A DNA stretch of 64,000 bases. It comes from Styela clava (lineage: Eukaryota). Numbering within the stretch: position 1 is the stretch's first letter; every line of letters begins with the position of its first letter. The stretch spans positions 15,810,001-15,874,000 of the forward strand of contig NC_135252.1 in assembly GCF_964204865.1 (NCBI RefSeq), in the 5' to 3' direction. The translations under genes were made by a program, and so were the position numbers. The notes below the pieces were generated by a model. It saw only the letters and a list, made by a program, of their open reading frames with translations, was not told where the DNA came from and ran no database searches. Shown here in pieces: positions 142 to 59,618 of the stretch.

Positions 142-1214
142 CTGTACAGTTCTGATAATTACAAAAATCTGATTTTCTTAAAACATTGAAATGTTGGTTC
201 TACTGAGGCGAATATATTATGTAGGCCACGCATGGCATTTTTGTTTAAAACATTAATACTGGAGATTATATATATTCATCATGATTTTATGTATAGTTTT
301 TTCCATACGTCGATCTGCAACAGAAAACGTTTCAGTAAAAGTGACTTCTCCTAATTTTACCGTGTAGACTGTGAGAATAAGTAACCGATTATTATCAAGC
401 AAAGGGGGGAAACGGGAAGGAACAATTCGTATTGGCTTTATCGAGAAAAATGCCAGAGCGTAATTATTCGTTAATGAATGGTATAGAAATGAAGCAGGGT
501 CGTCGTTTCTCTACTCAATCATGGAAATACATATTTTGTTTAGAATGACAAGATATTTTCTATTTATCATAGCTCATTTTTTGTGTTTTGATGAGATGCT
601 TGATTTGTTTAAATATTAAAAGACATGGTCCATTTACGATGAAATGCAATTAAATTGCGTATATTTTGAAAAACCGAAGGCCAGCATCGAGAACATAACA
701 GAAACAATAAGATTAGAATCTAATTACCGCATCTACGCATACATGACAAGCGTAGAGTTTCACAAACCTTTTGCTTGAGGCTATTATTGGTTTCTCTCAT
801 AGAAGGTTCAAGCCAGTGAGGCAAATTTTGACCTTCTGAAATGACAACAGCAAGAGCAGATTGTATTAAGTTTTGATAAAAAGAAAATTAAGCTGATATT
901 TAATCAGTATTAAGGTTGTGAATATACTTTCAACATAGAACAAAACAAGGACCTAATGGGAACTATAAGCATGCAGAGAATAGTTTTGGAAGATATAAGT
1001 ACGCATTTTAATGTCATATCACATTGATAATAATAACATATCGTAAGAGGATTGCCACAGTGCGGATACAGGTTTCAATAGTATTACTACAAAGTAAGGT
1101 GCATGTGGCATAAATGACCGTGTTCCATATTGCTAAATACATACTATTTACACATTTTCAAAAGGTAATAAAAACTAGAAAATTTATATAATTGTATATC
1201 TTAATAAGTGAAAA

Positions 1215-3243
1215 ATGAATATTGTCACCCTGTGCAGCGTGATTTTTTTAATTGTATCATGCGAGGCTTTTTGTCCCGCGTCAGAGAGTGGAGATTTACC
1301 AGCGGGTATTTCTGAAGAGGATTTTATCGATCCCGATGACACTATATCGTATGATGAGGAATCTCCTGAGTTGCCAGAAGGTCTGCAGGAAGCCTATGAA
1401 ATGCACGGTGAAAATGCAGGGGGTGAACCAGTCGAAGACGATGACGTATTAAAAATGAGCAAGGTAATATAATTTCCACATCGATTTATGCCAAGAAAGA
1501 AAGAACATTTTGGTTTGACTGCTTGACAAATAATTAGAATAATAGTCTCAAATTTGCACATGTGGTGTATAAAAATTATAAAAGCAGTGTGTGGACTAGA
1601 TTACCAAATTGACGTTTCACCTGGATTTGAGGCAGTCAACATAATAATTAAATAAACAAAATGTATCACAGACCGGCATCAGTATTTTAAAAGACTTTTT
1701 TTTAAATCAAAATTCTATAAGCAATTAATTACAGTGTTTAAAACATTTGGATTGATGCATTTCCTGCTCTATTTTTTAAACCTCCAAGCGCAGTCTGATG
1801 AACTTTATTAATTTTTTTTTCATTTTTCAGTCAATGCAGGAAATCGTCGATGCAAGTGAGTTAATTTCATTATTCTATGAGATCTGAAGTATCTAATATT
1901 TGTATTCAATGTCAGATAAAGAAACTTTTTGATATTAAATTTCTTTAACCCGTAGCTGTAGGGCATGGTACAACATATTCTACTGTTAATAATGCTTGTA
2001 TCCGGTTACTATATCGCCACGTAATGACATATAGCCTACAAATGGGTAGAATAATACTTAACAAAAGTTATATCTTCTGTCCTACTTACAATATTCAACT
2101 TATCAAATAGGATCTTTAAATTATACGATTTGTTTTGTAATTAATGATCATAAAAATTTATTTTCAAAGATTCAGTTTCTATAATATATATAATGCAAAT
2201 TATTTTCAACAGCCATGAAAAACGGTTTTTCAAAGTTATTCAAAAAAAGGACAGACAAAAGAGCCACAGCTATGGAACTCCTGCAATATACATCACATAA
2301 TACAAACATTGAACCCTCATATCTGTCAGGTGTTTTCATTAGTGCCACCAAAGTCGACAGTCAAAAAGGTAATGTTATAAAAGTAAAAAATTTACAACGT
2401 TTTCCAGGTTACGTTTATTTCAATGAAACGAATACTGAAGATGGTGAATTCAACTATAACATTGACTGTGATTTTGGCGTGAAAATATCTAGGATAGGCA
2501 ACTGAATCTATTATTAAAATGGCTGAATACCAATTTCAATATCATTTCCTAAAATTTTGATACTTTTTATATCAATAAGTTACTTCCTCTACAAAACTTG
2601 CAGCTGAAGGATCATTGAAATCAGTATGTAATTTTAAACCCCACTTCATTCATAATTGTGCTTTCGTCTAATATCCAATCTTTGAACCGCCACTTGCAAA
2701 TCAATATCCGTTCAAACGATGTCACAGAGAATATATATGAATCGGCAAAAAGCATTCATTTGTTATACCATGCCAAAAGACTGGTAGAAAACAATGGTTT
2801 ATCTCATAGCAATGCATTAAAACGCTATATTTTATTGTTAAGATTTGGAAGAAAAAATGTATGTTGAAGAAAAAGCACTAAAAATATTGTCTAAAGTTTT
2901 GCAACATTTTCAAAGGTAAAATTTAAAGAGTCGATTTTGGAAAACTTGCAAATAAATATTCAGAAGAAGCTTATGATGATTATGATGAAACTTAAATATC
3001 ATTAATCGTGTTTAAACTTTCAGTAAAGTTACTTTTTACGTACATTAATCTTTTGTAAACTTTCGTCGAGTTTTTGATTAAATTAAAATTAATGTTGTTT
3101 TTAGCAATCCTTTAGCAGGAAGACCCAAAGAAGAGTTGGAAGAAGCTAACAACGGGGATACAGAAAGTAAAGAAGATAGAAAGCTAGAAGACATACAACA
3201 AGAACGTAGTTCCAAAGAAGACGAAAGCAAAGAGGAGCTTTGA
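1215..3243 (+). CDS. ER-lumenal orphan family protein, paralog 1 (213 aa; signal peptide, acidic N-region, C-terminal KEEL)
   Basis: Exons 1215-1463, 1831-1855, 2213-2368, 2843-2915, 3105-3243 join via GT-AG introns into an open frame. It begins MNIVTLCSVIFLIVSCEA-FCPASESG, the core reads SMQEIVDATMKNGFSKLF...LSKVLQHFQ, and it ends SSKEDESKEEL*. AATAAA at 3276. Exon sizes and phases match the other three paralogs. Confidence 0.9.
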
Positions 3244-5631
3244 AGCAACATTATATATCTCTCAAAACAAACATAAATAAAATATACCAGAGCATATAGT
3301 CAAGCCTTAGGTTAATGTTGTTTCTTGATAATTACATTAAATCCATCATCATTATCAATGCAATGATCGACCAAACTGCCTTTTGGTATAAAATTTTGCT
3401 TTCGTGCAAATACGAGATGGGTTTCTGAAGATATTTTGAATAATAGTCATCGCTGTGGAGGCTCGAGGCGAGCTCGAACTACCAGGATCTAGTCAGGTCA
3501 AGGGCGAAATCTTCTCGATGACTTCTTGTCACTTACTGTCGCTGGCCACATTAGCATGTATGAAACAGGAATGTTTCTTTAGACGCTAAACCTTCATAAT
3601 TGAAATTTTGCTTAGTGGCTATACAGCGGCACATTGCTGATATTTTTAGGGATTTTAGGATTGAATTTACACCATTTCTCCGAGCATGACTTTGAGGTGG
3701 ATATTTAGTTATACCCAGGGGAATGAAAAGGATTGAATGTTGTCATGACCAAACTTTCTCCGATTTGAGTTTAAACAAACAATTATCCTGTAAAAGAGTC
3801 GCCCGAATCAAATTCATGATCGGTAACCCACGAAACCGATAAATGTAGACCCGATCCCTGACATTACAGTATGTGACAGAGACAGCAAACAATAATTATT
3901 GAATAGGAATTACAATCTTGATTCTCTTTGTAAATTGCTATCAAATTAAAATTTCGTAATCGTAATTTACATATTTTTCGCATTTGTGGCCCCAAAACCT
4001 AATAGAAACTCAACTATTTTCAAACTGCCCTTGTAAATGAAATACCTTTTTTACGTACTCGAGATGAGTTGAATTCAGAACTGCAAAAGAGAGTGAATGT
4101 AACAATAATATGATACTTGAGCATATATCACACCGATAAGGTTGGTAACGCGTTGTACATATACAGTCGAAAATGTGCATATACATCCAACTAATTTGGA
4201 CTGACATGCATATATAACCAAGGCCATATCCATTCAACACAATATACATATACAGTCAATAAACAACGGATATATCCGATCCGATCTATTATTCAAAGAA
4301 ATTTAAATCAAATCCTTGCACGGCCGCGTGTATGATATCAGAGAGTTACCTATTCGCTTCGGGAGGCATCGCGGGAGTGAGACATAAAACATTTTGTTAG
4401 AGCGAGTTTTCTTTCTTTCGTTCAAAATAAATTTTCATAATGGTTAATGATAATAATATGATAGATGACATATCACAATTTTATATATTGTTATAACCAA
4501 AACAAAAATCAGAGGTTGCCTCATGCAGATTAATGCATCCAAGGTTTCATGGATATATGCTGTATTGGCTGATTTATGATGTCATAATACTTGGCTACAG
4601 CTGATCACGGGCCAATATCGTTAGGTTATACTTTGAGAACGCCTAGGCCAGTGGTTCCCATCATTTCGTGGCTCGTGGATCCCTTCCGGAGGCTTTTTAG
4701 AACTCATGGCCCCTAATGCCATCATTTTATTTCCATTGATATATATATATATCCGTAAAAAAGCTACAAATTTCGATTCTCATTAGCCCGAAAAGTTTAT
4801 TTCTCTAAGTTTAAGAACAAATAAGCAAAAGAACATAATAGTATATAACATAAGTTATCAAGTGCATTGCGCTCACCTGCATATTGTTTCAAAAGCAACA
4901 ATATCATCGAGTAGACTAAGTACAGCCTACAACAGAAAGCAACCAGCATGCCATCACGCGATTCCGCGACTGACAAAGTATGACACAACTGAAATGCTTG
5001 CTTTCCGTGCACACTAATAATGAATCAAGTAAATTAGATAATGGCCCACTCCCGCTATTCTTCGCGGAGCGCCTAGGCACCGCTTTGATATTAAACATGC
5101 GGTCATGTATGAATTTGGTTTAATGAATTGATCCTTTGTTTAATGGCTGTATATGTATATTGTGTTGGATGATTATGACATTGGTTATATATGCATATGA
5201 TATCTGACTACTATGTTTGAGTGATGGATTCTATGTTTTCAGTAATTCATGCATTTGGAGGACCCATCACAAAAAAGTCACATACAATTGCGTATCTTCC
5301 AAGTATTCGGGATTCGATTCTGAAATCATCAGGTATTTGAAAAATCCCATCCCTAGATGACCTACCTACCTATTAGTATATCGCAGAATAAAGATCAGCC
5401 GCCTTGTCTTTGTTTTTTTGACGATTGAAAAATATAATTGCCCCTGATTCACAAGAGGATTGTCGAGTCGGGTGCGTTCAGTCAAAGAGTTATGTTTTTG
5501 ATACCAATTACAAAAATAATAGACAAATAATATTGTGCGCAAACACCTATTACGTAAACACTTACTTGAATTTATGTCTGTATTGAATTATTGAGTAAAT
5601 ATAATTATACGATTGGTGGAATATATTCTTT

Positions 5632-6505: not shown

Positions 6506-8363
6506 AACTATACGATTAATATACCCAAAGTTAAAACGGTGTGAAAAAATACGTAAGTCACGATTGCAAGAAGTGTTTGGCCTGCACTCGGTTGTATGAT
6601 TTGATCTGCGTGCTTTATGAAATGTTCAACAATAATTTAAGGTTGATTTGTTTTCACTGCTTAATTATCCAGGAGAGCACCTGTCACAATGATGTTGTCA
6701 AGTCAAGTTTTTATCATTCTTTACAGCACTCTGAATTGATATACCACCATACCAGAGCATTTCCGACTCGGTTTGGATGACAACCATGTTATATTGCTTT
6801 TCTTCGTCACAGCAGGATATGGCAGATATTCAAACAAGTATGGTTTGCAAGGGTGGCCATTGTACCCCAATAAAATTAACCGCTAATATGACCATACTTA
6901 AAGTTTATCGTTAATAATAATATTAGAAAATGATGTCATCATTATGATGATATTATTATGATCATTATCGCCTGGTTATCAATAGGGAAATCGGCGAGTC
7001 GCACGCATAAAATGTAATATATAAATGAGCATAGTACACGTGAATTAAAATGTCTCTTTGCCTCTTTCTGATAATTAAGAACGAATATTGTTTAAGTTAA
7101 AGAAATTCTACTTGAGACTTACGTTCTTATTTTAAAGAGATTATACTTCAACCTACTATCCGGACATCATTTTGCTTTAGACGTTTTCATCGTAGGACCA
7201 AACAAACCAGATGGGTTCAATGTACCGCATTTTTGTGTACGTGCACCAGATTATATCGATACATTGCCAGCGTGAAAATAAGTTAATTTAACTGAATTTT
7301 CTCATTTATTTTTTTGCCGGAAAATAAATTATCAAGCTAATCCTGTTTTTTCGAATACCGGCAATTGAACTTACTCACAGTGTTGAAAATATTGTGAAAT
7401 AAACAGTATATATATTATTTTAACATAACATTTCGTTAACGATTTTTCTTGTGAATGATAATATTGGTGAACGTGGCTGCTATGGCATGATATATGATTT
7501 ATAAACTAGTTGTAGATGGATGTGATATTTTTTATAAAGTATGTTATTATTAAAACGGCAAACGATTCAGAATAACACAAACATTGTGGTCAAAGCTTAA
7601 TCATCACACTTTCACAAAATATAGGACACGTGCAAAATCCGATGAAACTTTCTGCTTTAGGCTACTATTAACTTGTTGTGTCGTTAAAGACACATATAGA
7701 GACGCGTCATCGTTTTAATTTGTCTAAAACAGCAGCAACAACATGAACTAAAAACTCGACGATTGCAGATAACGACAGAATTCAGGACGTTAAGCTGTTG
7801 CTTTAGCATTAGATTCTTAGTATTTTGATCAACAGAAAGTTAGAGTTTTGCTAAAACTGCAGTAAATAAACTGAAACAAATTTCATTTTATTATTTCGCA
7901 CGTAAGATCGAATATTTAGAAAAGCATTCGCTCCAATATAGTATGAAAGAGAAGGATCAGTCAAGGTTACGAAGCATCAGTGCAGGTTCATGAAAGAAGA
8001 TACAAACCCTGTTTTAGCATTGGTGTATGCATAAACGTGGTTTTGTTATTTTCCTTGTGAACTAACTTGTTTTGCCCCAAGCCTAATCCTTACAATTTCG
8101 AACACGTTTATCTCGGCATAAGATAATTATTATTAGTCAGGTACAAACTGTGAGTTAAAATGGTATCACGTTTTCAAAATTTGGTAAAAAATTTAGGACA
8201 TATAATACTGTAAATGTAGTACATTTTACACGTGAATCGCATTTGAACGATATTCTGTAGCATTCGAGCACCGACTATATTTAACTAATATATATTTTAC
8301 ACATATTGCACAAATAAGCAAAAGCCATTAGAAACAAATCATCAAATTATAAATAGTACAACA

Positions 8364-10561
8364 ATGAAGACCAATATTCTGTGTTGCATCGTTTTTCTCT
8401 TTGTCACGTGCCATGCTTACTGTCCTGCGGAGCATACTGGAGAGTTACCACCAGGTGTTACTGAAGACGATCTGTTGGATCCCAACGTCGGAGTCGCATA
8501 TAACGAGGATTCTCCAGACCTACCGGAAGAATTGAGAAATGCCATTACACTAGATGAATTGGATGATTTAGAACCCCCATCCATAAGCGGGGATATTTTA
8601 GAGAACAGCAAAGTAACCTAGGCTACTTGCTTTTATATATAGGAATGATTCAAAATAATTTTACAAAACTGCACAATAATTGCGTATAAAAATGATTAGT
8701 ATTATTTTTAGAAATTTTTATCGTAATTAACGACAAATAAATATGCGGTATGTGTAGAAATTACAATAGTATATGTTTGCCAGAAACGTTTCTAAATTAA
8801 AACAAAGCCTTTAAATGGAAAAACTAAACTAACAGTGATAATTTGTCTAGCATTCGCATCGAACATCAAAATATTTATGCAAAGTTTTGTGCTGATACTG
8901 TTTTTAGTATTAGCTCGAGGCAAGGTAACAAAAAATTACACAGAAAGAAATACCGAAATGATGACCACAGTCCACGGAACTAAATTATCGAGTTATTCCT
9001 TGAAATTTTCGCATTCCAGTAATATATGGTCCCTACAGAGATAGCTTGATTAGGCAAAAATAAAACAAAATGTTAGGAGTTAAAATGACCATGTCATATA
9101 ATTCTCATCATCAATACTCAATGATTTTAATTTTATTTTACAGTCGATGCAAGAAATCATGGATGCAAGTAAGTTAATTTTTCAAAGAGCCGCATGTGAC
9201 TAATATAATGATACAGCGATTTTAGCCTTTCCAGATTGTTAAACTTTCGAAAATTTTGCAAGGTTGTTGCATTGCATATAGTTATATATTTTGTTTTATT
9301 TGGTCTTGACGTACCTAAAATCATATTAGTCATAGATAAGCATTGAACTAGAATTTTTATAATACTCCAATCACCATATGTCGATACATTATCCGAATTA
9401 TTTTAACAGCAACGAGCAAAGAATTCTTAGAATTATTTGGTGTAACACACGACCAGAAAGTACCAGCTATGGAACTCTTGAAATTTGTATTGGAACATAC
9501 AAAAATTATACCTGGATACCTGACAAATGTTTTTTCAGAAGTTACCAAAGTGAACAGTCAAACAGGTAAATTTATTGAAACATCCGCATGTTACGTTGTT
9601 GACATTTCATTTTATCATTCAATACACTAAACGTACCGATGAATAGATTTGCTAAATGTCTCTGGAGATGAAAGAAATCTTCACTACTACTGGAACAAAG
9701 CTTTAAATTATTCAATCGCCAAAGAGTGTGCAGTGTCCGATATGGTATTAATTTTGTCAACTATATATAGTCTCCTTGGGGCAATTTAAATTTTTCTACT
9801 TATGAAACACTGCGCCATCGCGTGGCAATTTAACACTTTCAAATATTTTCTCATTTGTTCCCCAAACCATCCATTTAAATTGCTTCGAATGAATTTATTC
9901 AGAATTTGAAGAAAAAATGTACGATGAAAATGGAGCAATGATATTGATGTCTAATGTTTTGAATCATTTCCAACAGTAAGTTGTTATTTGCGTGAAGATA
10001 GTAATAGATCTATAAAAACGGACAACGATAAAACAAAAATATGGCCAAAAAGTTTATTGTTAGTTCTTCATTTGTTGTTTTTCGACAAATGCTGCATCCA
10101 CAATGTTTGCTGAAGAACGTCGAAGGCAAAAACAAAACTGAATACGTTAAATCACCTCGCACATATTTTATATATATGTATATCTCTAGATACGGGCAGA
10201 CTTACATAGGGTAATAATAATTGCTGCCATTTCGCTATACGTCAACTGATACATAACTAATTTATTTGGCACATAATGATAAGCAAGTGAAAATCAATTG
10301 CTATAAACAGCAACCATGGAACAAAGCAGAAAGACATTTCTTTTATTTTTTCTTGTAAATCTCTTCACCGTTACGTTATTATTAAGAAATCCCTATGGCG
10401 GAAGACCCAAGTCTGAAGATTTAGGTGTAGAGGAAAAGACCAAAAAAGAAGGAGAAGCTAAAAACAAGAAAGCATTAGAAGATGAACCCAAATCGACTAA
10501 AAAAGACGAACCGGAACAAGAGCAAAAGGCTGGAGAAAAACAAAGCAGAATCGAGCTTTGA
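8364..10561 (+). CDS. ER-lumenal orphan family protein, paralog 2 (225 aa; signal peptide, acidic N-region, C-terminal RIEL)
   Basis: Exons 8364-8612, 9144-9168, 9410-9565, 9903-9975, 10387-10561; the first four are the same sizes as in paralog 1 (249/25/156/73). It begins MKTNILCCIVFLFVTCHA-YCPAEHTG, the core reads SMQEIMDATTSKEFLELF...MSNVLNHFQ, and it ends EKQSRIEL*. AATAAA at 10634. Confidence 0.9.
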
Positions 10562-11830: not shown

Positions 11831-13185
11831 ATGAAATATATTGTTTTTACCGTTTATGTATTATTCTATTTATGTAATACGTCAGAAGCAGGCCCAGAAA
11901 CAAAAATAGTAAGTAATGCATATTAATTGCCCTTTTTCGCTTCATTATGTCTGTTGTTCATCAATTGAATTTATTTTATTCATATTTTTCAGTCACTCAA
12001 CGAATTTATAGATGCAAGTAAGTTATTTTTAACATAATTTACTATCACATTTCTCCAGCAAGTTTGCCTTTATTTATAAGATATATATGTACTGCTTGTT
12101 TGTAGGATGACAAAAGAAATTTTAAACGACAAAGTATAACCTCATTGAATTATCAATGTGGTATTTCAAAATACGGAGAGTGAAAGGCTCTTAGATTGTA
12201 GGGCATATACGAGATAAACAGGACCAAAGATATACTTAGTATATATACAAAAATAGGCCTATATCTTAACCTCTCTGCAGTGACCTGAACTGCATCATTG
12301 AGTTGAAGTGCTTCACTTATGTTCTTCCCGTTCACTTGTAACACATTTCTGTTTTTAATTAATATATTTAATTTTCTATAGCACTTTCCTCAAAATTTGA
12401 TGACAATTTCTTTGGAGAAGAAAAAGAAGCAACAGCTTTAGCTATTCTTGAATATTGCACAAAAGAAACTAACATAGATCCAGAATATCTTACTAATGTA
12501 TTCTATGAAGTCCTTGAAGTGGAATCAAAAGAAGGTAAAAAATACGAATCCTACATACTCCATAATTCTTGTTATGTTGTGGGTTGAAAGTTTTTGATAA
12601 TTTAAATAAAAGCTTTTGATGAAAACTAAACGGTGGTTATAACTACTCAGACGAAATATTTAGAAACGGCTATTTAGTCTTGATAAGTTGGCGGACACCA
12701 AAATATATTATCTGAATTGTCCGCAGATGCATGACTCTTCCCGAAATAAACATATATCACCCCCTAAACATTACTTTCAGAACCCAGCAAACAGCCAAAT
12801 TGTAATACTGCAAAACGGTATAGTATTCGGTAGATTTTCACAGTCCGTACTAGAACAAATTTTCTGTTTACCCCGTACAAAGCGTCTGTACCCTCAAAGC
12901 TATAACAACTGATAAATTGCTGATTTTTCAGAGCTGGAGGGAATCAAGTACAAATTAGAAAAAGCTGTCGATATTATGAACTTGGTGATCAAACATTTTC
13001 AAGGGTAAGTACATTGATTTTGCTATCACAAAATTTTGAAAGAGGTTACTTGTTTTTTATACATAATATTGGCAAACCCCACACCATAAATATTCATTCA
13101 TCGGTTTTATTTCAGAGCACCTAACGATGCTGGACGGCGGCCATCGGAAAAAACTAAAGAAGAAAAACAGAAAGACGAATTATAA
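11831..13185 (+). CDS. ER-lumenal orphan family protein, paralog 3 (132 aa; signal peptide, C-terminal KDEL)
   Basis: Exons 11831-11908, 11993-12017, 12382-12534, 12932-13004, 13116-13185. Translation MKYIVFTVYVLFYLCNTSEAGPETKISLNEFIDATLSSKFDDNFFGEEKEATALAILEYCTKETNIDPEYLTNVFYEVLEVESKEELEGIKYKLEKAVDIMNLVIKHFQGAPNDAGRRPSEKTKEEKQKDEL*. Absent from the ORF track. Confidence 0.9.
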
Positions 13186-13761: not shown

Positions 13762-13867
13762 CTCCTGAAGTATGCTCACCAAGATGGCGCACAACCTAAA
13801 CTCGGGTTGTGTACCAGGTTAGTGTTCAGGTTATGCGACATCTTGGTGCGCATACTTCAGGAGCACC
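13762..13867. mobile_element. Short palindromic MITE, family A
   Basis: CTCCTGAAGTATGCTCACCAAGATGGCGCACAACCT ... AGGTTATGCGACATCTTGGTGCGCATACTTCAGGAG inverted arms. Confidence 0.75.
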
Positions 13868-14772
13868 TAAAAAAAATATAGAATCAGATATACAATGTGC
13901 CTTACACAGTCTCTTCTCAGGGTCAAATGAGACTTTTTGCACACCCTGCAAACGACACCCAAATGTGATTGTGATGCTGATTGAGGGAATAGACTAAAAA
14001 ATCTTTTTGTTCACTTCCCTCTTTAAACGATATGGAATAACATGAATTTAGGACATTTCAATGACTATGTTTTCTTTGCATTTACCTGTTTTCGTTTCGT
14101 TTGTAAACACTGAACATGTCAAAATCGTCGTTGGAACTTGGGAAATTTGAAATAATAAAAATTAATGGGCACTGTTGCATTCGATTCTAAATAATAACGA
14201 AGATTTCATGTCAAGACTATGTGCTTGGAAAAATCTTTTTGCGCGATTTCTCGGTAATATATCCAAAAATACAGAAAAGACATAGAAGACTATTCTGTCG
14301 AATTGATTTTGAAGTTTTAGAATGACTTGAAAATAGTGAAACGATATACTTAAATCAGCTACTGCTGTTTTATTTCATTCCCTGTAGTCACGAACTTTGT
14401 AGTTACAAATACACCAATAAAATTGCCAATACTTTTTGGCACATTATTCAATAGATTATGCGATTTGTCTGATGTATGCGATTTAACAATTTGCAGAGTA
14501 CAGGGGCGACGCAATTGCACAGTGGAAGAAACTAGCCGTGGGCGGTGGTCATTACTACCAATTATCACCATTGTTCAAAACAAATTTATATTTCTAATCC
14601 CTGATCTTCTGTATAATAGATATTAAATTTTGAGCACTGCTTTTGTTGTTTTGGTCTGCATGCCTCGAGGCGTGATGCGGCCCAAAATCTGATGTGTCCA
14701 ACAGTATTGTAGCTTGAACCATGTTTTCACGTTAGTATTCGATTGATCAGTCTTGACAAATACCAGATAAGA

Positions 14773-17240
14773 ATGATACGCACAGGAAAGAGTTATGGTT
14801 TACTATTTAGTGCTGTTATATTGCACGTAGTCTCATTATGTATTGGGATCGATATATCTTTTATAAAGGAGGTAAGTACAGTTCTTGGTATATTATAATC
14901 TGTGATACCGTTATGGTGGCGGTGTATAGATCGCTTCGATTCTAAACATAACAAAATAGAAAATGACTTACCTAGACCGTGAACATCCATAGCTCAATGG
15001 CTTGGCCTGTTATACTTTTTTCTTGTTCATGTCCGTAATAATTAACCAATCAGAAAAACGTTTACGGTGACGTAACAATGAAATTTATGTAGCGGCATTT
15101 TTCACGCAGACGAATTCGAGCATGGTTGTGGATTTGGACTCGTTGTCATAGTGTTGCATAAACTCCATAAAGCATAATGCATACTATATCACAGTTTAGA
15201 GTTGTGTTTTCACATGAGTTAATTGTCATTTTATTTTCGAAGAGTTTTAGTCTAGTTATCGCAATCAAAAAGTATTTCCGGAAAAGCTGCGGCTGTTCCA
15301 CCCTAAAATTAGTTTAGTACGTCTGAATGACAAATGGTTAAATATTTTCAATCGAACTTATGGCTATGAACATGCCAACCATATTGCAAGCGCAAACCCG
15401 AACAAAAATTTATCAACGGTGAGGCGTAGGAAGAATATTTCTGACGACACGGGTCGGGGAAAAACATCCGTCCAACTTCTCATCTTCGTAAAATAAAAAC
15501 AAAATACCGGAAACTTAACCTATTGCTGATGACGTGTCCCATGGTAGAAATTTTTCAATTCTATTTTATTCGGGAAGTTTTGCATCGATCGTGTTTCGAC
15601 GCCTGGAATACGTGTTTTGGGCAATAATATAGCAAAGTTTACAAGTGGGCCCTACATATTCGCATTCATAAAATCCAAGTCTATTGTTTGTTCCAAATTC
15701 AGTACAACAAATGAAATATGTGGTATAGTTCCTAAACGAGTGACATAATATAGAGAAATTTATTACCATTTTTAATACTGAACATACTAATTTATACAAT
15801 TTAATTTACTTTTTTAGTCGGGGGACTCATTGATTGATCTTGGTGAGTTTTTATTATATTTAGATTTCATTTTATATCTATATATATATTAATATTGATC
15901 TCGCAAATATTCACCAATTGAAATTATTCCACAATTGAGCCAATAATAATTGATCAGAAACGTCCAAGTTACCGTAGATGTTTCAACCTTCTTTGTATTA
16001 TGAGGTTCTAATAACACAGGCAATGTTGTTGAATTTTACTTTAGCAGATGAATTTGTTTCCTATTTTTTGCCCAAATAGTCAAATGTTTCGTTTTTTGCT
16101 TCAGTTTTATCCGACGAATTTGAGGGTCTGTTTCGGAGGGGAAATGGCGAAACTGACGGCATGAAGCTCTTTCGACTTATTGAAGCTAACACCAAGCTTA
16201 AAGGTCCCGACTTCGAAGAGCTGTTTTATAAAATGCTTGGGGCTCGGTCGTTAGAAGGTATATCGCCGTTTCATGATTTATATCTATTATACGATTTTAA
16301 ATATTTACATCGAAATAGCAACTTAATGTTAACATTGTCAAGTTTATTAACTTAATATCCAGATAAAGAAACACATATTTATCGCGTATATGTTATTCGC
16401 TGTTAAAATGGTACACAACCACGATTTACATGTGATTCTGCTATACCTCCCACCCTCTGTGCCGTGCCAATTCATTCTTGGCCCTAGGTTTTCAATGATT
16501 GTGCTTGAATAAGCTACATATATCCAGTCAGTATATTCATCTATTTAAATTGCCATTTTTCCCATTTTTCAGAATTGCAACAAACAAAATATGATATGAA
16601 TAAAGCAACAAACGTAATAAACTCATTGATAAAATTGGCAGATAAGTATGTATTTTTTTTCGAATAACTAGATACTGAATAGTTCAATACTATTATTTAT
16701 TATGATAATTGTCTCGAAGCAAATTATTGTGCACTCACTCTGAAGTGAACTTACTTCTGAGGTAAAATCTCTGACATGCCAAGATCTAGAGGGTGGATGC
16801 TCAAAAATTTGTTTTTCTGTCGAGCATCCGTCTATGCCTCAACTATGTAACAAAGATAATTCTGTAATTATTTAGATTATATTATGATTGATAATCAATT
16901 ATGCAAAGTTCTTGCCTTGAAAACGATTTCAAAAAATTGTCACCTTAAAATTGGGTATACTCAACGGATTTCAGGCAGCACGATGATAAAATTAACCCAG
17001 ATAGGACAAAATCAAGAGCTGTCTCTTAGAAAAATTTGTGATTTGTGCATTTTTAACATTTATTTCAAGCGAGTTTTGAATTCTTAACCAATAATATAAT
17101 ATTCAATTTACAGCATTTCAGTAAACCAATCAAGAAAACCTGGTTCGAAATATAAACATGAAGATGAAAGAATTACTGCAGCAAAGAAATTATTAAAAGA
17201 CAAATTAAAAGGCTCAGTCCAGTTCAAAGAAGAACTTTAA
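14773..17240 (+). CDS. ER-lumenal orphan family protein, paralog 4 (158 aa; signal peptide, C-terminal KEEL)
   Basis: Exons 14773-14871, 15818-15842, 16105-16257, 16573-16645, 17114-17240 (internal exons 25/153/73 nt as in paralog 3). It begins MIRTGKSYGLLFSAVILHVVSLCIG, the core reads SGDSLIDLVLSDEFEGLF...INSLIKLAD, and it ends GSVQFKEEL*. AATAAA at 17287. Exon 1 is the least certain assignment (phase-0 GTAAGT donor and signal-like sequence). Confidence 0.85.
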
Positions 17241-19783
17241 TTGAAAATGACGTTGTTTTTGTTATTTCTGATTGAGCAATTATTCGAATAAATCCTTGGA
17301 TATTTAAATAAAATTACAGTAAGCAATATGTTTGGTGTATATTTATGGGTTGGCTCGTTGAAATATAGCAGGCTAGCCAACTCAGTTAGGATCTATATTA
17401 GTTTCATGACCAGCCCATATATACAGTTCTTGTCGGAAAATGTCGGACATTCCTGGCTGTTGGCCTGGCCCGTATGTGGTAAACAGTAATTGTCAATCCT
17501 AGAATGTCCTGGCGCCTGATCATCGCATGCTGCATTCTAAGGATACTTTATCAAATAAGGCTTCATTCGTATTCTGATTATTATTTTTATCTGCTTGTTG
17601 TAATTGGCAACAATATGTGAATTTTCAAATCTTTGTAATAGTTACTGGACACATAATATGAATATCCTATCTTCAATAAAATTTTCGCATGTCATTGGCA
17701 CCCTCGGCCTGCATGTATATACGCTACATAATAATTGACATATTTAATGTAATGCAAGCCCCTAATATATATATATATATAAACAAAATGTAGATAGCCA
17801 AAATGCCAGCAGACTATTTAGGCAACATTATGTCTGCTGATAAAAAATTTAATGTGGAAAAAAATAATCTTGATAACAATAAGTTCAAGAATTTGATAAT
17901 GTGTCCTGCCATCTAACGACACGCACAACAGAAATTATCCTCACGTTAGAAAAATGCATTATTTTGCGAGAGTAATTAGAATAATGGCAATGACCTGATA
18001 CTTTACACCGGACGTCATTAAGATAAAATTGTGCGCAGTAGTTATTAATTCATTGGGATCAAGACCTGAGGGAAAAATAGCCTAAACCTAGATATATATA
18101 GGTACCTAGAGAGTAATGCCTAAATATATACAAGGAGGTAAATGTCCGAGCAAAATAAGATTAATGTTAAAAGAATTGTACTGAACGTGTATCGTGAATT
18201 ATTGTCGTGCCATATTTTGGATGGGTAAAAATTTCTAGCGACTTTCTCATTTCAGTAAGGAAAATTTGTAATGGATTGGTTTATTAAATTTGAAGAAAAA
18301 CAATTTTCTCAACAACAACAACAACAAACAGTTTAGCAAAACGATATGATCATAAACATAAATATCATTCTATAATTGTACGCAAATAGCAGCACGCAAC
18401 GTCTAAGAGTAAGAAAGGCAGCTAAAATTCCTTGCAGTCTTATCTGAATAAAAAACCACATGTTTTCTATTCACCACTCAAATAAACCAGTACGCTGACT
18501 GTGTCCAAGCCCTGGACACTGATAATTCTTCCTTAGTGCTCGCTTTGGTATATCGAGTAAATTGAACTTATCGACCCACTAGCGAGTTTTACGGCATAAA
18601 TGAGACAAAACATGGGTTCTCTATTGCATTTGATATATTTATTTCAAACAAGTTAAAACGGTACAAATATTCTATATTGAGAGATTGAATTTTTCATATT
18701 AAGAGTCTGTTACTTTTAGTTGTTTCCGTGTGATTATGCTGTGGCAGAGAAATCATGAAATTACGATAATCTGATAATGAATGCGAAACTGTGAGAATCC
18801 AGTAGAACTCTGTATCTAAGGATAAAAAAATTTCGTGTTTTAAAACCGACTATGTTCAAATTCCATGTTGCTTTAGAATTCAATTTAGCAGTTTGTTTTC
18901 ATTCCAAACATATCAGTTGTTCAGTTGAATCATGATATATGTGAAATTATTTTAACTGCTTTGAAACATAGATTCATAAACACACTTAGTAATCGCAAGA
19001 TGCTAAAATTGTCAAATGAAAATCGTCACTTCTGGACCTACATTTATCAAGTAAAAGTGGGTAAAATTGTTCGTGCTTCCACTCTCTGAACTATGAAGAA
19101 ATCGTAAGATAAATATAACAATTTTTTTTTTACATTCCGGGTAGTTTTTTTTCTCAAACCGAATCGAACTAGAAGCCACACGTTGGTCGACACGCAACGC
19201 ACGTGTTTAGAAAGGCCCTTGCTTCCACCGATATTTCTTCGTGTGGTTCGAAACCTCTTGTTGGACGATTTCCTGATCTGAAGTTGCCATTTAAAATGTC
19301 TTCATCGGACTCTGGGGCTGATAAGATAAAAAGATAAAGAGGCGTATATTAGTAAACGCAAGGAATAGGAATACAAATTAAAATCGCTGTTTCAAGCCAA
19401 ATTTGGTCATCTATCAATGTTTTTGGTTAGCTTGACATTCAACATGAACTGTAAAGTTTCTAATAAAATGTCGTTCAGGGCGACTGACACAAACGCTCTG
19501 ATGACAGAGTTGGCAATCCCAAAAGTCAGTTGATCGGTTGCCGATTTGATTTGGCACAACTTTTAACAATATAAACCATATGTACATCGTGGACAATGAT
19601 ATAGTTTTGCACATTTTACTTTGTATTCTATTTTTTATGACATATTTGAAAACTAGACAATTTTCAATTTATTTTACATTGGTGCAAATTATTGTTCTTC
19701 ACTTATTAAATTCATTATTCCGATCGGTTACGAATCATTAATTTCTTATCGTTATAGGCTAGCAAGTTTGAGAACATATTTGC

Positions 19784-21435
19784 TCATTTACCAAATCGTT
19801 TTCTTCTTCCAGACATTATAATATCACTACAATGATAGCAAACTGAAGCTGAGCAAGAATAACCAAATCCATAAGCTTTTTTATCGAACAAATATTCTCG
19901 TAGTCCTGATCTTCGTTGTTCATTCTCAAAATCTGGTAGAATTCTTCCCTCTGTATTGGTGATCAATACAGCACAGACGATAACAATGGACAACATCAGC
20001 ATGGTTATCTGATAAACAGCGTTAGAAGTTTGATAACGTGCTTGAAAAAAACTTTGCTAAAGCAAAAACACCATTTAAATCTGTCATCTACAAACTGAGG
20101 CCAATCAAGTAATTCAATCTGGCCCACCTGATGCTGCCACAATCAAGGTAAAACCAAATTTTGATGCTTCAACTAAAAAAATAGCTCAAGGAATTTATTT
20201 AGATTGCGATTAAATTTAGTTTAGGTACGACGAATCAAGATCGATGGCATTTATTCCATAGAACCAGACAATGACTTTGTGAAATTTGCACGAGGTCGCG
20301 CTTAGTAACCGAATTATAACATCATAAAACGGGCCAACATTTATTATTGTGAAATGTTCAAATGGCAGCGTTGAAAGGGTTCAACTTTATAAACAAATTC
20401 TCAACATTATTTAAAATATGATTATTTCATTGACATTTGAGCATTACATCAATACGCGTATTCTTAAGCCAATCCAATTTTAATTTATTTATTTTGATAT
20501 AAATAGCAAGCTAACAGAAAATATTTACATCCCACAAAATTTTGTACTTACTAAATATTTATGTTATTTTTTTTATTCGATTGGTTAGAAAAATATTTTA
20601 TATCAACATTCGATTTTGGAGAGATGTTACTATATGTCATATACTATACCACGCAGTTACTGTACCATGTATGCAAGTGTAGTTACAAATTTTACAAATT
20701 TTCAGTGACCGGAAAAAGTCGTTGACTGTCATTCACGGTCATAACACGTCATTTCGCGATTATCCTACTAAATTGTTATGACATGAAGAAAAGTAACGGT
20801 ACACAAGTGAAGTTATAATGGAACTAAAAATATACAATAAAACAGGGGTTCTCAACACGCGGCTCGCACTACCCTTAGTAAAACGGCGAATACAAAAGTA
20901 CAAATACGCCCCTTCTCTGCGAAGACAAAACATAAATCGCCAATTTGGCTGTTTTTCGGGTCCAGTATGAACCTGAAACCGAAACAAAGTGTGTGGTCCA
21001 AAGACGCAGGATTAAAGTATAGCCATTATCTTGAATAATTTTTAAAATATGATATTTTCACAACTGTTAAATTACAAACTTCTAGTCGACAAAAATCTTT
21101 TCGTGACAAATATGTCAGTTGTATGTATATCCTTCATTAGAATCGAATCAATCGAATACGCTTAACTATCAATAAAAAACGTTTTTGAATTTTCGATTCT
21201 GCATAGCGATAACATTATTCGTCTCATTGATGAGATAATAAAACGAGGCGGAATATCTATAGCACGACAATTACAATTTATAACTAAATATGGAAAAATA
21301 ATTCATTCGTGCATGAATTTTGCTAATATTATCACTATCAACGAGTTTTACAAGACAATTTCACTAATAAAACAAATGTTTAAATTACTAGAAGATCCAT
21401 GCGACATATATACTTACGACAGACTTGAATTCCAT
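19784..21435 (-). CDS. Secreted prepropeptide (80 aa) predicted to yield an amidated Cys-containing 22-mer
   Basis: Exon 1 21435-21418 (MEFKSV, donor GTAAGT) joins in frame to exon 2 20008-19784 (acceptor TTTATCAG). Translation MEFKSVITMLMLSIVIVCAVLITNTEG-RILPDFENEQRR-SGLREYLFDKK-AYGFGYSCSASVCYHCSDIIMS-G-RRKR-FGK*. Minus-strand AATAAA near 19670. Confidence 0.8.
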
Positions 21436-22900
21436 TTTCCAAAATATCTTTACTTCTGATGTATCGCAAAACGTTTACAAATATGTTTTACTGGTTGCTT
21501 GAAATTTATTAAATATTATTTTTATCTATAAATCAGTAAACCTGGGAGTGAAACCAAAAGTAATTAGTGTTATAGATTAGGCCTTTGTGATAAAAAATGA
21601 AACGTTTAAAATGAAAAAAATATATATAGATAAAATTATTAATAATGAATGAGTCCATGAAATGCTCTACAAAGAAAATTTGCTCAATACAATGTAACTC
21701 GTATTCACTCAGAAGTAAATCAGAGTCATCTTTGAGCAAAGTAACGGGCGGCTACCCGTACCAAGAAGTACTGAAACTACGTGACAAACCAGCAGCAAAT
21801 GCCAATCGACGCAAGGCATGAGGCAGTTTAAGTTAACGAGCCCGAAAAAAAGCAATGAGTAATTGAAGATAAACTTTGGGGTATAACCCGCGGAGAATAT
21901 TTATATAAGTTGAAAGAACTTCTTCGGAAGCCAATGTTAAATTTATTGTTAAAGAAATCTACGGCAAAATTTTTCATTTTGAGCTCGTTGTCGAAAATGT
22001 ATATTCCGGTATAATTTCCCATCTCCGTTTGATCTCATTCATTCACTATCACATCAATGATATCGCGATAACACATTTTGCCACGCAAATTTGTAGCAAT
22101 CTCTTCTGACGAGGAGTAACCTAGTTGGCACATGTCATTTTAAAGTCATCGAGGTTTACATTTTTCTTGATGTCATCGCGAAAATGCGATATGACGTCCT
22201 AGCTATAGATGATCATCAATGCGTATACCAATTATTCTCACGGCTCTCAAGATGGTGCTTCGTACCAGAAGTGGTGGCGTACTGCGCAAAATCGGTATTA
22301 ATGTTACCTTTTATATATGGGTATCAAGCTTCCAGCAAACATATCCAAATAATGGCAAAACAATTATCTATAATGAAATATGAATGAATATTGTCAAAAA
22401 TATTTTAGAAAATAAATTAAACAACAGAAACAAAATAATCAGTTTCTTCGAAATTCAATGACTCACAAAACGCGTGATATATCATTCAGGGTTGTAACTT
22501 GTGTCTGTACACTCGGCCAAATCCAGAATGACGTAGCACGCTTGGGTCAATGTATTCCATTTTCTACGATGCTGTCAAGTACAGGCACGCTCCATTACCT
22601 TCGGAAATTGAATAAATGAATAATAACTAGCCATAATTGAAACATTGCGCACCACAACACGGTTTAGCACTAAAATATATCTAGTATACAGTTAAGTTAA
22701 TTTAAGTTGTCGCTTTTAATAAGATTTTTACTTTAAAAACGACTGCTGCGGTCCCGATAGAATGAGGTATTTTTTGTAAATATAAAATCTCATAATGTAA
22801 TTGAATAACTTGGCCAGGCGTTCCGATCCGATATCGTTAATTTCTGCGGTGAGCATCAGTACCGATTATGTAAAATTACCAATTACGATTGAATTTTCCG

Positions 22901-29663: not shown

Positions 29664-36392
<6,729 letters not shown>

Positions 36393-37913
36393 AACAAAAC
36401 TATTAAACAGATCTACTGTCTGACTGTTGTAATGCAGTACCGTACAGCAAGCTGGGCTTATTAAAGTTTACAAAGTTCTGCCTACTATGGTCCAATTACG
36501 GAATTATTCATCAAAATTATCTTCTGTTAAAAATATGCGACACAGAAACAAGTCACAGAAGCCAGATTCCCGCGACACCGAGATATTTCAGTTGGCTTGG
36601 CTGATTTTCTAATTCCTACATACTTCCAATATCATGTCGGTGTGACGTCACGTCTTCTACCGCACACGATAATGCTTCAGCGTACCAATGAGCATATATA
36701 CATACATATACGGTACGAAATGAAGCATTATGATTTTGCCTTGTAATTAAATTAGATACGTGTATCTCTCTAAGGTAGGTTGGCGTATCGTGCTAAGCGT
36801 TGGGAACAAGCTTTTCATCTTTACATGATATGTTTACCAATTGATTTAACTTGGGCTACATTGTATGGAAGGACGTCCCTGTCCCACTTAGATACTTGTC
36901 GATCACGTTTCCATCTGCGTCAGCCCGGGCATTTGAAAAAATTAACTGAACAACTATTCCCATGACATATTTGGACTGGTAATCGCAAAGTGAAACTAGA
37001 CTGGCAGTGTGATTAAAAGGGAAAACAGACATCTCTTTTCTGGGATTTAGATAGTCAAATCTTTATCATAAGAGTAACTGGAATCATGTAACCTTGAGTC
37101 TACAAAAATTAGCCCTCATAAGCATATATGCACCCGTGCAATCTTCATCTTGAATATATCCCACTTTAAGACATATTTCGGTCTCAACTATTTTGTTTCA
37201 AATGTTTAATCGTAAATGTTTAATTCATGACGAAGATGAAATATCTGGTTAGATTGAGATATTTATTTTCGTCGTGCAACAAACATCAATGGGTTTCAAT
37301 GTTTCAACTGCAATGGACAAGGTGTCGCGAAAAGACTATCAAAGTCATCGGTCAACGACACCATTTTCCAGCAGCAGATGACGTCAAATATTTACGAAAG
37401 TATATTGACATAAATAAATACAACACAATTTGGGAACCAAAATTCAAGAGAAACGATTGATTCTATGAGAGAAAACAAAAAAGATTGACGAAATATGTCA
37501 ATTTTGAGCTCTATCGCCAATAGATACTATAGCATGGACTTGGACCGGTTATATGAACTACGAAACAATTCTTTCGCACATCATTATCTCCCACAGCATT
37601 CGATTTCGAACATAAAAACCCACATAGCCATGACGAGTGTATTCATAACCTCACGCAAATCGGCAAGCTTGAAGTTGTTCACGGCCGAATAAATTGGCTT
37701 TTTCCCTGTTCTACGCCTCCCCTCGAATTCACTCGGGGCTAGTTGGGAGTGGGAGTGGTGATTCCTCTAAGGCTCATGGCCCTTCAAGTTGTGTAAAGGG
37801 AGTGATCCCCCCCCCCCTAATTTTGAGGTGCGATTCAACACTGTAATTCCTAACTCAAGTTCCTAACTCCTGTATTCAAACATAACGACTATGACATATT
37901 CATCAGTGTAGAT

Positions 37914-39978: not shown

Positions 39979-42900
39979 TTAAGGAGAGAATGCTGGTGGT
40001 GGACCAGATGCAGAAAAATTGAAAGTAGTTGGCACATTAGTGGTGTTAAATTGATAACCTCCAGTCTTTTCGATTTTTTTAGACTCTGCCTCTGCTTGCC
40101 GCTGGTCCGCAGTTGTGAAAACTTCCTGAAGGTTCTTCCTTTGATCGTCAGTCAAACCAGAAACAAGCTGATTATACCATCCATTGTTATTTAATTCCAA
40201 TTGTTTTAAGACTTGCTTGAAAATGAAATATTCACTGCCAACATTATCTTCATCATCAAAAGAAGATGCGTAAATTTCAAGCGGCGTCTCTCCATCACTG
40301 ATATCACTGTCGCCATCAATACCATTTAAAGAACTCTTCTCCAGCATTTCTAAGTATTCAGCAGACTCTTCATCAACCTCATCCTCGCTTGATTCAAGCT
40401 CCTCACGTTCATGATCACTCTCATCTTCTTCCTCATCAGAATTCGAGCTTTCACTGCTGTTCTCTTCCCCTCTACTTCTGTAAGCTTGAGTCAGTCCTTG
40501 CAACATTAAGATTAAAGAAGGTAAAATGTCTGGTGCAAGTTCAGATATGATTTTTGGTCGTTCCGCAGAATCAATCACAGTACATAGGCCAAGTACAGAT
40601 ATCCGTCTATCATGAATTCCGAGAAAGCAATCTGCATCTTTAAGCCACTGGCGAAAAAATTGCTCAGTAACAGTTTCCGTTGTGTTTGGGAACTGCATGC
40701 TTTCCAATGTTTGAAAAAGTAAGGTGGGATTGTAATAAAGGGCAGCAATTACAACTTGAAGGCACATGGTTCGAAGTTCACTTGTTTTCACTTCTTTGGT
40801 GAGTCTTTCAAGAGCAAGCTGAACAAATGAAGGGATGCACTGGTCAATTTTTCCATGGCATTGCAAAATGATTACTTCCAGAAGTTTTACAGCATGACTT
40901 TCTGCATCTTCTCCATTTTGTTCTTCAAGAATTTTTTTGCACATTTCAAATACTGTTTCCATATTTTTTGTGTTTGACAAAAATACATCTGTATCAACAG
41001 TGCAAAAGTTGTGCACGACAGGCATCATTTCGGAGAAATAATCAAAGCCGTCATCGTCGAAAATAACTTTAATCAATGGCAATGCCTCCCACATTTGTGG
41101 TGAAATTGCTTGGCAAGTTAAAGAATACATTAACGATAAGATTTCTTCATAAAAATCCATAATTCTATTCTTCAAAACATGGGCAACCACAGGAACAACA
41201 ATACTTTCTAATTGTACTGTAATATCTCTTTGTTCCTCCATTGTATCCAAAACTGTTTCAATTGTACTTAACACTCCCATAGCAGCCACTGATCTGTTGT
41301 CAGATGCCTCATCGTCATCATCTCCAGTACCATTGATTTGTCCATTTTCATCCGTTAATAGTTTGAAAAACGTCATCACCAAACTCTGTGTTATGTCTAC
41401 TGCATATGGTATCACTTGCTCGCAATAAAGACAAATAATTTTATGCACAACTGAAGTCAACTCATCATTCTCTGTTTCATGCACAAGTTGAAGTAAACTC
41501 TGAATCATGACATTGATATAAGGTTCACAACGCTTCTCAGCTTTTTCCTTGTGCAACAGTAGAGTCTGAAGAGCAAAAGCAGCCTCAACTCGAACTGGAA
41601 GTTCAGGGTCATCAATAAGAAGTGTACGTATTCCATCAGCCACTGCAAATATATTCGAATCCTTTTTGAATGTGATTCGGCTGAAATGCTGAGTGACCCA
41701 TACGGCTCTTGCTCTCATGTATCCAAGTGTACTCTTGTATTCTGGAATAACATGGGTAAAAAGCATGCTTTCTAGTTGACTTTTGTATACTTTTCTTTTT
41801 CTTAGGGTTGATGATAAAGATCCAATAATATGCAAAGCTCCTTCCTTGCGACGAGGTTCCGTTTTTGTTTCATTGGCAACCAGAACTTTATGACAAAAAC
41901 CCATTGTTTTTTGCACAACTTGCTTTCTTTTAGTACAAGCGGACTGCAAGAAACACTGAGCTGCACTCGATGGAGAAAAGAAATCTTCCTTGAAATCAAA
42001 TCTTTCACGAACAAACTCATGTGGGTCATCGCTCCACAATTCTTCGTCTTTTTCTGAGAAACACATCAGAGGAAATATTACATCTTTCAAAACTTCGTCA
42101 TAAACTCCTTTCATGACTTTCCAAGTTTGAGAATGGCTAACTCCTTGTTCCAAAAATTGCATTGTCTGTTGTAAGACGCGAGGTGATACATATTTTCCCT
42201 TGCTGTAATCACCCAATACTTTCAGAAGAACATGAGTTGCTCCGACAGCGTACCTTCGCAAGAAAAATTCAGAAAATTGATTATATTCTTGACTAACAGT
42301 CCCAGGACTACCATATCTTTCAAAAACTCTGGTTAAAATATGCAGAGCCCACTTTTTACATTTCCACCATGGTAAATCGGGTCTCTCTAATTCATCCACT
42401 TGTAGAGTTTCTTCAGGTGGTGCCTCTTCAATCACAATTTGAATGTATTTCATCCAGGTATCCAAAACTGCACCTTCAATCAATTTGAGAGGCAGAGAAT
42501 ACTGTGTAAGAGCGTAAATCACTTTCAAACACTGCTTTTGAATAAGCACAGACTGAGCAGACCCATCATTGAGTGCATGCTGAAAAAGTTGTCCCAGAGC
42601 GGGTAGAAATATTTTCATTGCTTCCAATAATGGTACCCTCTCTTCTCGTTTCTTGTACTCATATTTTTTAACCAATTGATACAAGGTCTGCAAAGCTCCC
42701 ATCCATGTATTTGGATCACCTCCCAAGTAGTTGGCAATCTTGTCTATGATTCCTGGCCATCGCTCTGGAAAGTCTTCCCTAATGATTTGATAAACAGTGA
42801 CGCTCATTTGACTTCTGATAACTTCAGGAGCATGTATAATGGCCTCGACAATATTCTCTCTTATAATTGCTTTATCATTTTCATGAATGAAAAAGACATC

Positions 42901-52285: not shown

Positions 52286-59618
<7,333 letters not shown>

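Follow-up and report, generated by a model that had tools for sequence, protein, structure and literature searches.

A spliced Styela clava gene encodes an orphan precursor with two three-cysteine segments that may yield a two-chain, disulfide-linked peptide

A minus-strand gene of Styela clava, spliced from three coding exons according to transcript contigs and a RefSeq protein match, encodes a 127-residue precursor in which the six cysteines beyond the signal are all packed into two clusters separated by a furin-type site. Its three-exon translation is identical to XP_039267222.1 (127 aa, Styela clava), which is annotated as “uncharacterized”; the gene model is already in RefSeq, with no function attached. 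That this is a real gene is virtually certain. The amidated three-cysteine 22-mer on which the first-pass annotation centered probably makes up half of a six-cysteine product with two chains. Our preferred reading, which we hold tentatively, is that this product is disulfide linked and that its most likely role is signalling. Positions given here are those of the window, the whole 64,000-nucleotide stretch of DNA that was analyzed.

Among the public runs, none was recorded as RNA and seven were guessed to be RNA; six of these RNA-guess runs were examined over the locus. The examined runs derive from mRNA, since their contigs carry spliced joints. The first-pass annotation had proposed a tiny first coding exon (MEFKSV, 21435 to 21418), and the lack of a transcript joining 21418 to 20008 had been named beforehand as a result that would refute it. 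That joint, spanning a GT donor and a 1,409-nt GT..AG intron, is present in contigs of four of the six RNA-guess runs (X1, X2, X3, and X7), while contigs of X5 and X6 stop short of it. The other end of the annotated gene was mistaken. In all six runs the contig over exon 2 breaks off precisely at 19792, the joint 19792/19317 occurs in each of the three runs examined over exon 3 (X2, X6, and X7, from three studies), and all three exons are found in single contigs from two studies (X2, 646 nt; X7, 972 nt). The precursor therefore does not end at 19784, and the tail that had been read after RRKR is read-through into intron 2. The two-exon, 81-residue product proposed at first missed a third exon, which brings the protein to 127 residues and adds three cysteines at the C terminus. 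The last 49 residues of the 127-aa RefSeq protein map to 19318 to 19172, and the stop codon of the three-exon frame lies at 19171 to 19169. An AATAAA starts at 18643, and the longest contig (X7) ends 13 nt beyond that first base. Intron-2 bases 19593 to 19791 were without coverage in the six RNA-guess runs. A DNA-like run, X8, covers intron 1 unspliced and is no control for the exon 2/exon 3 joint, because it has no coverage over exons 2 and 3.

Table 1. Exons, introns, and predicted processing segments of the precursor gene (positions in the window)
Feature	Positions	Strand	Evidence
Exon 1: 5′ UTR and 6 codons	21418..21524 (coding 21435-21418)	-	Contigs X1, X2, X3, X7; GT donor; 5′ end provisional
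Intron 1: 1409 nt, phase 0, GT..AG	20009..21417	-	Spliced joint in contigs
Exon 2: 217 nt; rest of signal peptide, pro-piece, chain A, amidation/furin site	19792..20008	-	Contigs, sequence
Intron 2: 474 nt, phase 1, GT..AG	19318..19791	-	Joint 19317/19792 in X2, X6, X7; donor and acceptor
Predicted signal peptide, residues 1-27	residues 7-27: 19946..20008	-	Hydropathy; small residues at -3/-1; cut after Gly27
Acidic pro-piece 28-37, RR 38-39, 9-residue spacer 40-48, KK 49-50	19877..19945	-	Sequence
Predicted chain A, residues 51-72; Cys58, Cys63, Cys66; predicted C-terminal amide	19811..19876	-	Sequence; processing inferred
Gly73 amide donor and RRKR (residues 73-77), furin-type R-x-K/R-R	19796..19810	-	Sequence
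Predicted connecting peptide, exon 3 part, residues 78-112	19217..19317	-	Sequence; pLDDT <50 over residues 71-106
Predicted chain B, residues 113-127; Cys118, Cys121, Cys125; free C terminus	19172..19216	-	Sequence
3′ UTR	18630..19168	-	X7 contig 18630-19317

In the 5′ region of the gene (21456 to 21527, minus strand), one X7 contig matches from 21519 and continues on its 5′ side for 46 letters that are unplaced. Those letters could stem from a trans-spliced leader, from an allele, or from an untranslated exon farther upstream. Near the 5′ end of the X7 match, at about 21526, there is an AG with a pyrimidine-rich run. Intron 1 carries a repeat of about 120 nt (20109 to 20230) that has 2,948 first-look candidates in the genome, 40 of which were scored (86 to 90% identity), and that is very abundant in RNA-guess contigs. 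A second repeat lies at about 21652 to 21740.

The rest of the window holds genes of several kinds. Two clear tandem copies of a multi-exon secreted protein with a signal and an acidic N-terminal part lie at 1212 to 3240 and 8289 to 10558 on the plus strand, and further plus-strand pieces at 11958 to 12584 and 16080 to 16352 are probably more such copies. One tandem-copy exon weakly matched a Scabin-like ADP-ribosyltransferase (E = 0.0025), its 18.2 bits falling short of the cut-off of 27, and no comparable match came from the paralogous exons. A multi-exon protein kinase gene at about 29667 to 36467 (minus strand), which its motifs lead us to take as CDK8-like, lies upstream of the peptide gene and is a possible synteny anchor. 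An intronless 1,065-residue frame of the importin-beta family at 39982 to 43176 (minus strand; IBN_N, E = 1.8e−14) may be a retrocopy, the genome being rich in introns. Cytochrome P450 exons occupy 56544 to 59615 (plus strand), a VWA-domain exon occupies 62401 to 62742 (minus strand), and short palindromic or inverted, MITE-like repeats are found at 31 to 134, 4206 to 4385, 5041 to 5196, and 13762 to 13874.

The precursor has the features of a convertase-processed, amidated prepropeptide: a spliced intact frame, a signal stretch, basic sites, and a Gly before a basic site. Each exon-2 element first noticed, from the signal-like stretch ending in TEG through RR, KK, and the three-Cys 22-mer to G-RRKR, was confirmed on the minus strand. 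The signal-like stretch reaches an 11-residue hydropathy of 3.4, and small residues at −3 and −1 are the established rule for signal peptidase cleavage. Very probably, the precursor is secreted and cut at G-RRKR. The genome gave 11 convertase P-domain matches in a profile search. Matches to the copper type II monooxygenase family (PF01082) numbered 46 at the exon level, spread over many contigs with clusters on C5 and C13, and none was identified as PAM. This family covers PHM but also DBH/MOXD, and it looks expanded in the genome. The original description of the gene as an orphan amidated prepropeptide stands insofar as it is transcribed, is an orphan, and carries a convertase/amidation signal after the 22-mer; the amide itself is a prediction.

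The length of each predicted chain depends on which sites are used. Chain A would be the 22-mer, with three Tyr and with Cys at 22-mer positions 8, 13, and 16, or a 33-mer from residue 40 if KK is left uncut. The first-pass suggestion of DOPA or halogenation at these Tyr gained no support from the analysis. The linker consists of 35 residues, 8 acidic and 4 basic, the latter being single Arg at 92, 96, 99, and 112, with residues 96 to 99 forming an R-x-x-R site. Chain B would be a 15-mer, or a 28-mer from residue 100 if the linker is cut only after Arg99 of that site. The N terminus of chain B is uncertain because no basic residue occupies P4, P6, or P8 relative to Arg112. According to one survey of cleavage sites (PMC2976990), KR is the commonest, and KK, RR, and single Arg are also used.

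The arrangement of these elements was compared with 200,000 shuffles of residues 28 to 127. G-R-x-[KR]-R occurred in 1.4% of shuffles, two three-Cys clusters in 0.16%, and two such clusters flanking a furin-type site in 0.01%, all three patterns having been chosen post hoc, which overstates their significance. The Cys clusters are hydrophobic (GRAVY of 0.62 and 0.89), and the linker has a GRAVY of −1.14. Approximate net charge is 0 for the 22-residue chain A and +1 for the 15-residue chain B, and the 127-aa precursor contains no Trp. In the RNA contigs, whose depth cannot rank expression, five coding variants were found, four of them synonymous and the fifth Thr117Ala; none affects a Cys or a basic site. 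The variant pattern (P of ∼0.05 for four of five synonymous, hand-calculated from a synonymous share of 0.34 among transitions) hints at purifying selection.

Single-sequence AlphaFold models place the Cys clusters in helices that have the highest confidence outside the signal (block pLDDT of 73 and 79/72 versus 47 to 59 for the linker). Both models are of low confidence overall (mean pLDDT of 56 and 61, pTM of 0.33 and 0.40), and no Cys contacts were reported. Cys118, Cys121, and Cys125 are spaced i, i+3, and i+7, on a single helix face. The Cys spacings of the two clusters mirror each other, with position sums of 183, 184, and 184, a pattern expected by chance in 14 to 25% of cases. With the low-confidence models as queries, Foldseek found no match at E values up to 0.001, and fold searches gave best Z scores of 4.9, on the signal helix, and 2.7, none of them usable. 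A prediction of the A-with-B complex scored 0.02, with no controls folded, and is not evidence for or against.

The two-chain product that we favor would arise as follows. The signal peptide would be removed after Gly27, and the six Cys would pair while A and B were still one chain, with the acidic linker serving as a folding tether, like the C-peptide of insulin, to be excised later. A-amide would then result from cleavage by a furin/PC-type enzyme after RRKR, trimming by carboxypeptidase, and the action of PAM, while the remaining ends would be freed by cleavage at RR or KK and at either Arg99 or Arg112. A-amide and B would remain joined by disulfides after removal of the linker. The number of Cys in each chain is odd, so at least one A-B bond would be needed for all six to pair without dimerization, and we consider it fairly probable that the two chains are linked. 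The first-pass suggestion that an odd Cys takes part in an interchain bond is plausible, with the exon-3 peptide as its likely partner in place of another 22-mer or a thiol modification; with a second three-Cys peptide in the same precursor, the odd Cys of the amidated 22-mer would have a natural partner.

The favored pairing would be an antiparallel ladder (58-125, 63-121, and 66-118), and the alternative would combine one ring within each chain with one A-B bond. Given the rate at which mirrored spacing arises by chance, the low confidence of the models, and the lack of reported Cys contacts, the ladder is a preference, not a result. A more specific proposal, that the gene encodes a non-insulin two-chain chordate hormone folded as a helical hairpin with three interchain disulfides, its 51-residue loop excised, and acting through its own receptor, appears rather unlikely. 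Peptidomics restricted to reduced samples would show two seemingly unrelated short peptides. With the corrected gene model, the question is open to direct test by exact masses.

Searches for relatives returned the protein itself. Word-indexed protein searches gave self only with the exon 2 query (targets of 40 to 130 aa), self as the one of four candidates that passed with the full protein (targets of 69 to 223 aa), and nothing among proteins of 30 to 68 aa. phmmer against 1.84 billion representatives found self only at E values up to 0.001, a bar that short peptides could miss, in a set with possibly few tunicate proteomes. Queried with exon 2, exon 3, and the full-length protein, the Styela clava genome returned this locus and one stop-interrupted match (E = 0.13), and the chain B Cys pattern was found at four places, the three others in closed frames. 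Pfam gave only DUF2689, under the cut-off, for the precursor and nothing for exon 3; the PDB sequence search had a best E value of 0.32; and phage tblastn found nothing. In the Atlas feature search, 6 of the 10 rows listed were neuropeptide precursors of different families (0.81 to 0.85), but all scores were below 0.9, and a score of 0.8 is attained by one-third of shuffled proteins; residues 46 to 127 alone reached at best 0.79, with unrelated clusters. We treat this search as a lead toward signalling only, one that indicates no particular family. The gene identifier LOC120342459 was in no paper searched, most subscription papers and supplements being outside the search. Nor was any title or abstract start found that describes the peptide, although Styela transcriptome tables could carry the gene under another identifier. 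Across these searches the precursor is an orphan in the sense that no relative was found, and the many lineage-specific peptides of ascidians are its background class.

Signalling is favored over defence by the near-neutral chains, the lack of any paralogue found, the mostly silent variants, and the classical neuroendocrine-type processing sites, and we regard it as the likelier of the two functions. Ascidian peptides that are confined to one lineage and act on GPCRs of their own have been well documented (PMC6475428), and a signalling peptide derived from hemocytes has been documented in an ascidian (PMC10888236). Charge is not decisive for function, given that weak antibacterial activity is described for neutral, amidated ascidian peptides rich in Cys, the St-CRPs (PMC13208793).

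Alternatively, this six-Cys product, whether cut into two chains or only partly cut, could be a host-defence or tunic peptide of hemocytes, similar to the turgencins, St-CRPs, or centrocins. Its chain B has the Cys spacing (3, 4) of the second half of turgencin A, Cys26/29/33 (PMC7432809), and the six Cys of turgencin are described as a 1-6/2-5/3-4 ladder in a helix-loop-helix (PMC7024374). The chain A spacing (5, 3), however, differs from that of the first turgencin half (4, 5), and turgencins are cationic, with pI values of 9.24 and 8.33 (PMC7024374), against a charge of 0 to +1 here. The precursor layout is likewise common to the centrocins, but a centrocin pI of 10.04 is reported (PMC4805251), and the Styela chains are near neutral and free of Trp. 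The St-CRPs are the neutral, amidated precedent for this reading. Orphan status would suit a fast-evolving defence gene, and the neighbors include the tandem secreted-protein genes with their weak Scabin-like match; against this, no paralogue cluster was found in the genome itself, and four of the five coding variants are synonymous. We rate a defence role as unlikely, though well short of negligible.

Somewhat less likely still is a polyprotein from which A-amide and B are released separately, each with one ring and with its third Cys homodimerized or modified, which extends the first-pass idea to chain B. Several distinct peptides per precursor are the norm (PMC2976990), and covalent homodimers occur in ascidians, for example dicynthaurin (PMC10608444). 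The polyprotein reading needs separate explanations for two odd Cys counts, both of which are covered by one A-B link. Rings of the C-x4-C, C-x3-C, and C-x2-C types are all feasible, but in the ER, pairing within one precursor is favored over intermolecular pairing. Should the product prove to be a defence peptide or a pair of independent peptides, it would add one more lineage-specific ascidian peptide and be of modest interest.

A short isoform with intron 2 retained, in which translation would end two codons past the exon-2 boundary, would yield chain A alone, as in the first-pass gene model. An in-frame stop does lie just past the donor, an AATAAA is present at 19673, and one 172-nt X2 contig lies inside intron 2 (19421 to 19592, depth of 3.2). 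Since the exon-2 contig stops exactly at the donor in six of six RNA-guess runs and is joined to 19317 in three of three, we consider this isoform very improbable, although contigs drop rare variants and a minor form may exist. Least credible is a metal-chelating or ferredoxin-derived peptide with Cys clusters that would coordinate a metal ion or an iron-sulfur cluster. The [2Fe-2S] ferredoxin motif is C-x4-C-x2-C, and seven of nine PDB sequence matches (E values up to 10) were ferredoxins or the ferredoxin-bearing pectocin M2, aligned on chain A, but their E values of 0.32 to 1.7 are at chance level, the matched proteins are mutually related, PF00111 was not reported for the protein and had none of its eight genome matches at this locus, the signal peptide directs the product to an oxidizing compartment, and the furin-type site splits the would-be domain.

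Several known families share single features with the precursor. The [2Fe-2S] ferredoxins were set aside for the want of a significant PF00111 match and for the internal convertase site; nearby in the genome, four near-identical exons on contig C3 (contig positions 15538650 to 15626152) carry C-x4-C-x2-C and match PF00111, and from this motif they presumably belong to a cluster of xanthine dehydrogenase/aldehyde oxidase-like genes. Endothelin is a 21-mer that carries four Cys and ends in Trp, whereas chain A has three Cys and no Trp, and the 13 genome matches to PF00322 (E values up to 10) included none over the cut-off and none at the locus. Guanylin and uroguanylin are C-terminal peptides with C-x2-C-x4-C-x2-C, and chain B has only C-x2-C-x3-C; the three PF02058 genome matches are all on another contig (C1). 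Those three, one of them at the cut-off, are false positives: they represent a repeat at least 1.8 kb long, in three copies (95 to 97% identity), with in-frame stops. A link to orexin was dropped, as Ci-orexin-A has four Cys at 6, 7, 18, and 25 in 43 residues (PMC10987541).

The precursor shares with calcitonin, CGRP, adrenomedullin, and amylin an amidated peptide, cutting at dibasic sites, and a possible C-x4-C ring. The adrenomedullin/CGRP likeness drawn in the first-pass annotation extends to ring size only. Members of the family have a long helix and tail after the ring, and CGRP and adrenomedullin have an aromatic amide end, whereas chain A has a third Cys, only 9 residues after Cys63, and a Ser-amide end, and is followed by a second Cys-rich peptide. 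In the account of PMC12638048, one N-terminal Cys pair is the only ring in this family, and the calcitonin type ends in a Pro-amide. PF00214 did not match the precursor, but this profile is insensitive here, as its genome search matched nowhere, controls included.

Halocidin and dicynthaurin, the other models proposed at first, are ascidian disulfide-linked dimers of short chains, described as helical with a single disulfide (PMC10608444). That type does not fit the Styela precursor, which has three Cys per chain, near-zero charge with no cationic character, and two unlike chains from one precursor. Of the orphan ascidian peptides, Ci-LF, Ci-YFV/L, and Ci-NTLP are short and linear. These Ciona peptides and CiEMa have no likeness outside their lineage (PMC6475428, PMC10888236), just as none was found for the Styela precursor in the database searches, and many lineage-specific Ciona neuropeptides are described as acting on lineage-specific GPCRs (PMC6475428). 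CiEMa differs in being a linear, Cys-free hemocyte 14-mer (PMC10888236). Turgencins A and B of Synoicum turgens are closer in Cys content, each being reported as one cationic chain of 35 to 36 residues with six Cys, an 8-residue loop, and a C-terminal amide (PMC7024374, PMC7432809). They share with the Styela precursor an ascidian origin, six nonadjacent Cys, a C-x2-C-x3-C second half as in chain B, and the ladder proposed here; they differ in that the six Styela Cys span 68 residues with a 51-residue loop that carries convertase sites, in the near-neutral charge, and in the spacing of the first half.

A family with the 3+3 Cys frame was not found in the databases and literature searched, and the closest parallels are in layout. 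In the insulin/relaxin family, the first chain has two Cys and the second has four with an adjacent CC, and the chains remain disulfide linked after the C-peptide is excised. The sequence of the Styela precursor fits this plan, with a predicted signal, a first chain, a connecting peptide that basic sites delimit and that would be excised, a second chain at the C terminus, six Cys in all, and predicted linkage of the chains. It differs in having 3+3 rather than 2+4 Cys, with other spacing and no adjacent CC, an extra N-terminal pro-piece, and a first chain predicted to be amidated; PF00049 did not match the precursor, and its three genome matches all lie elsewhere. The centrocins of sea urchins derive from precursors of 119 to 121 aa consisting of signal, pro-piece, heavy chain, 24-aa interchain, and light chain, with one interchain disulfide, a pI of 10.04, bromo-Trp, and an amide on the light (second) chain (PMC4805251). 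The order of segments, the similar size of the single precursor, and the amidation of one chain via Gly and a basic residue are common to both, whereas the Styela precursor has three Cys per chain, a charge of 0 to +1, no Trp, and its predicted amide on the first chain, and no sequence likeness to centrocins was found. The predicted layout of the precursor is of the insulin or centrocin type, and the precursor is a member of neither family.
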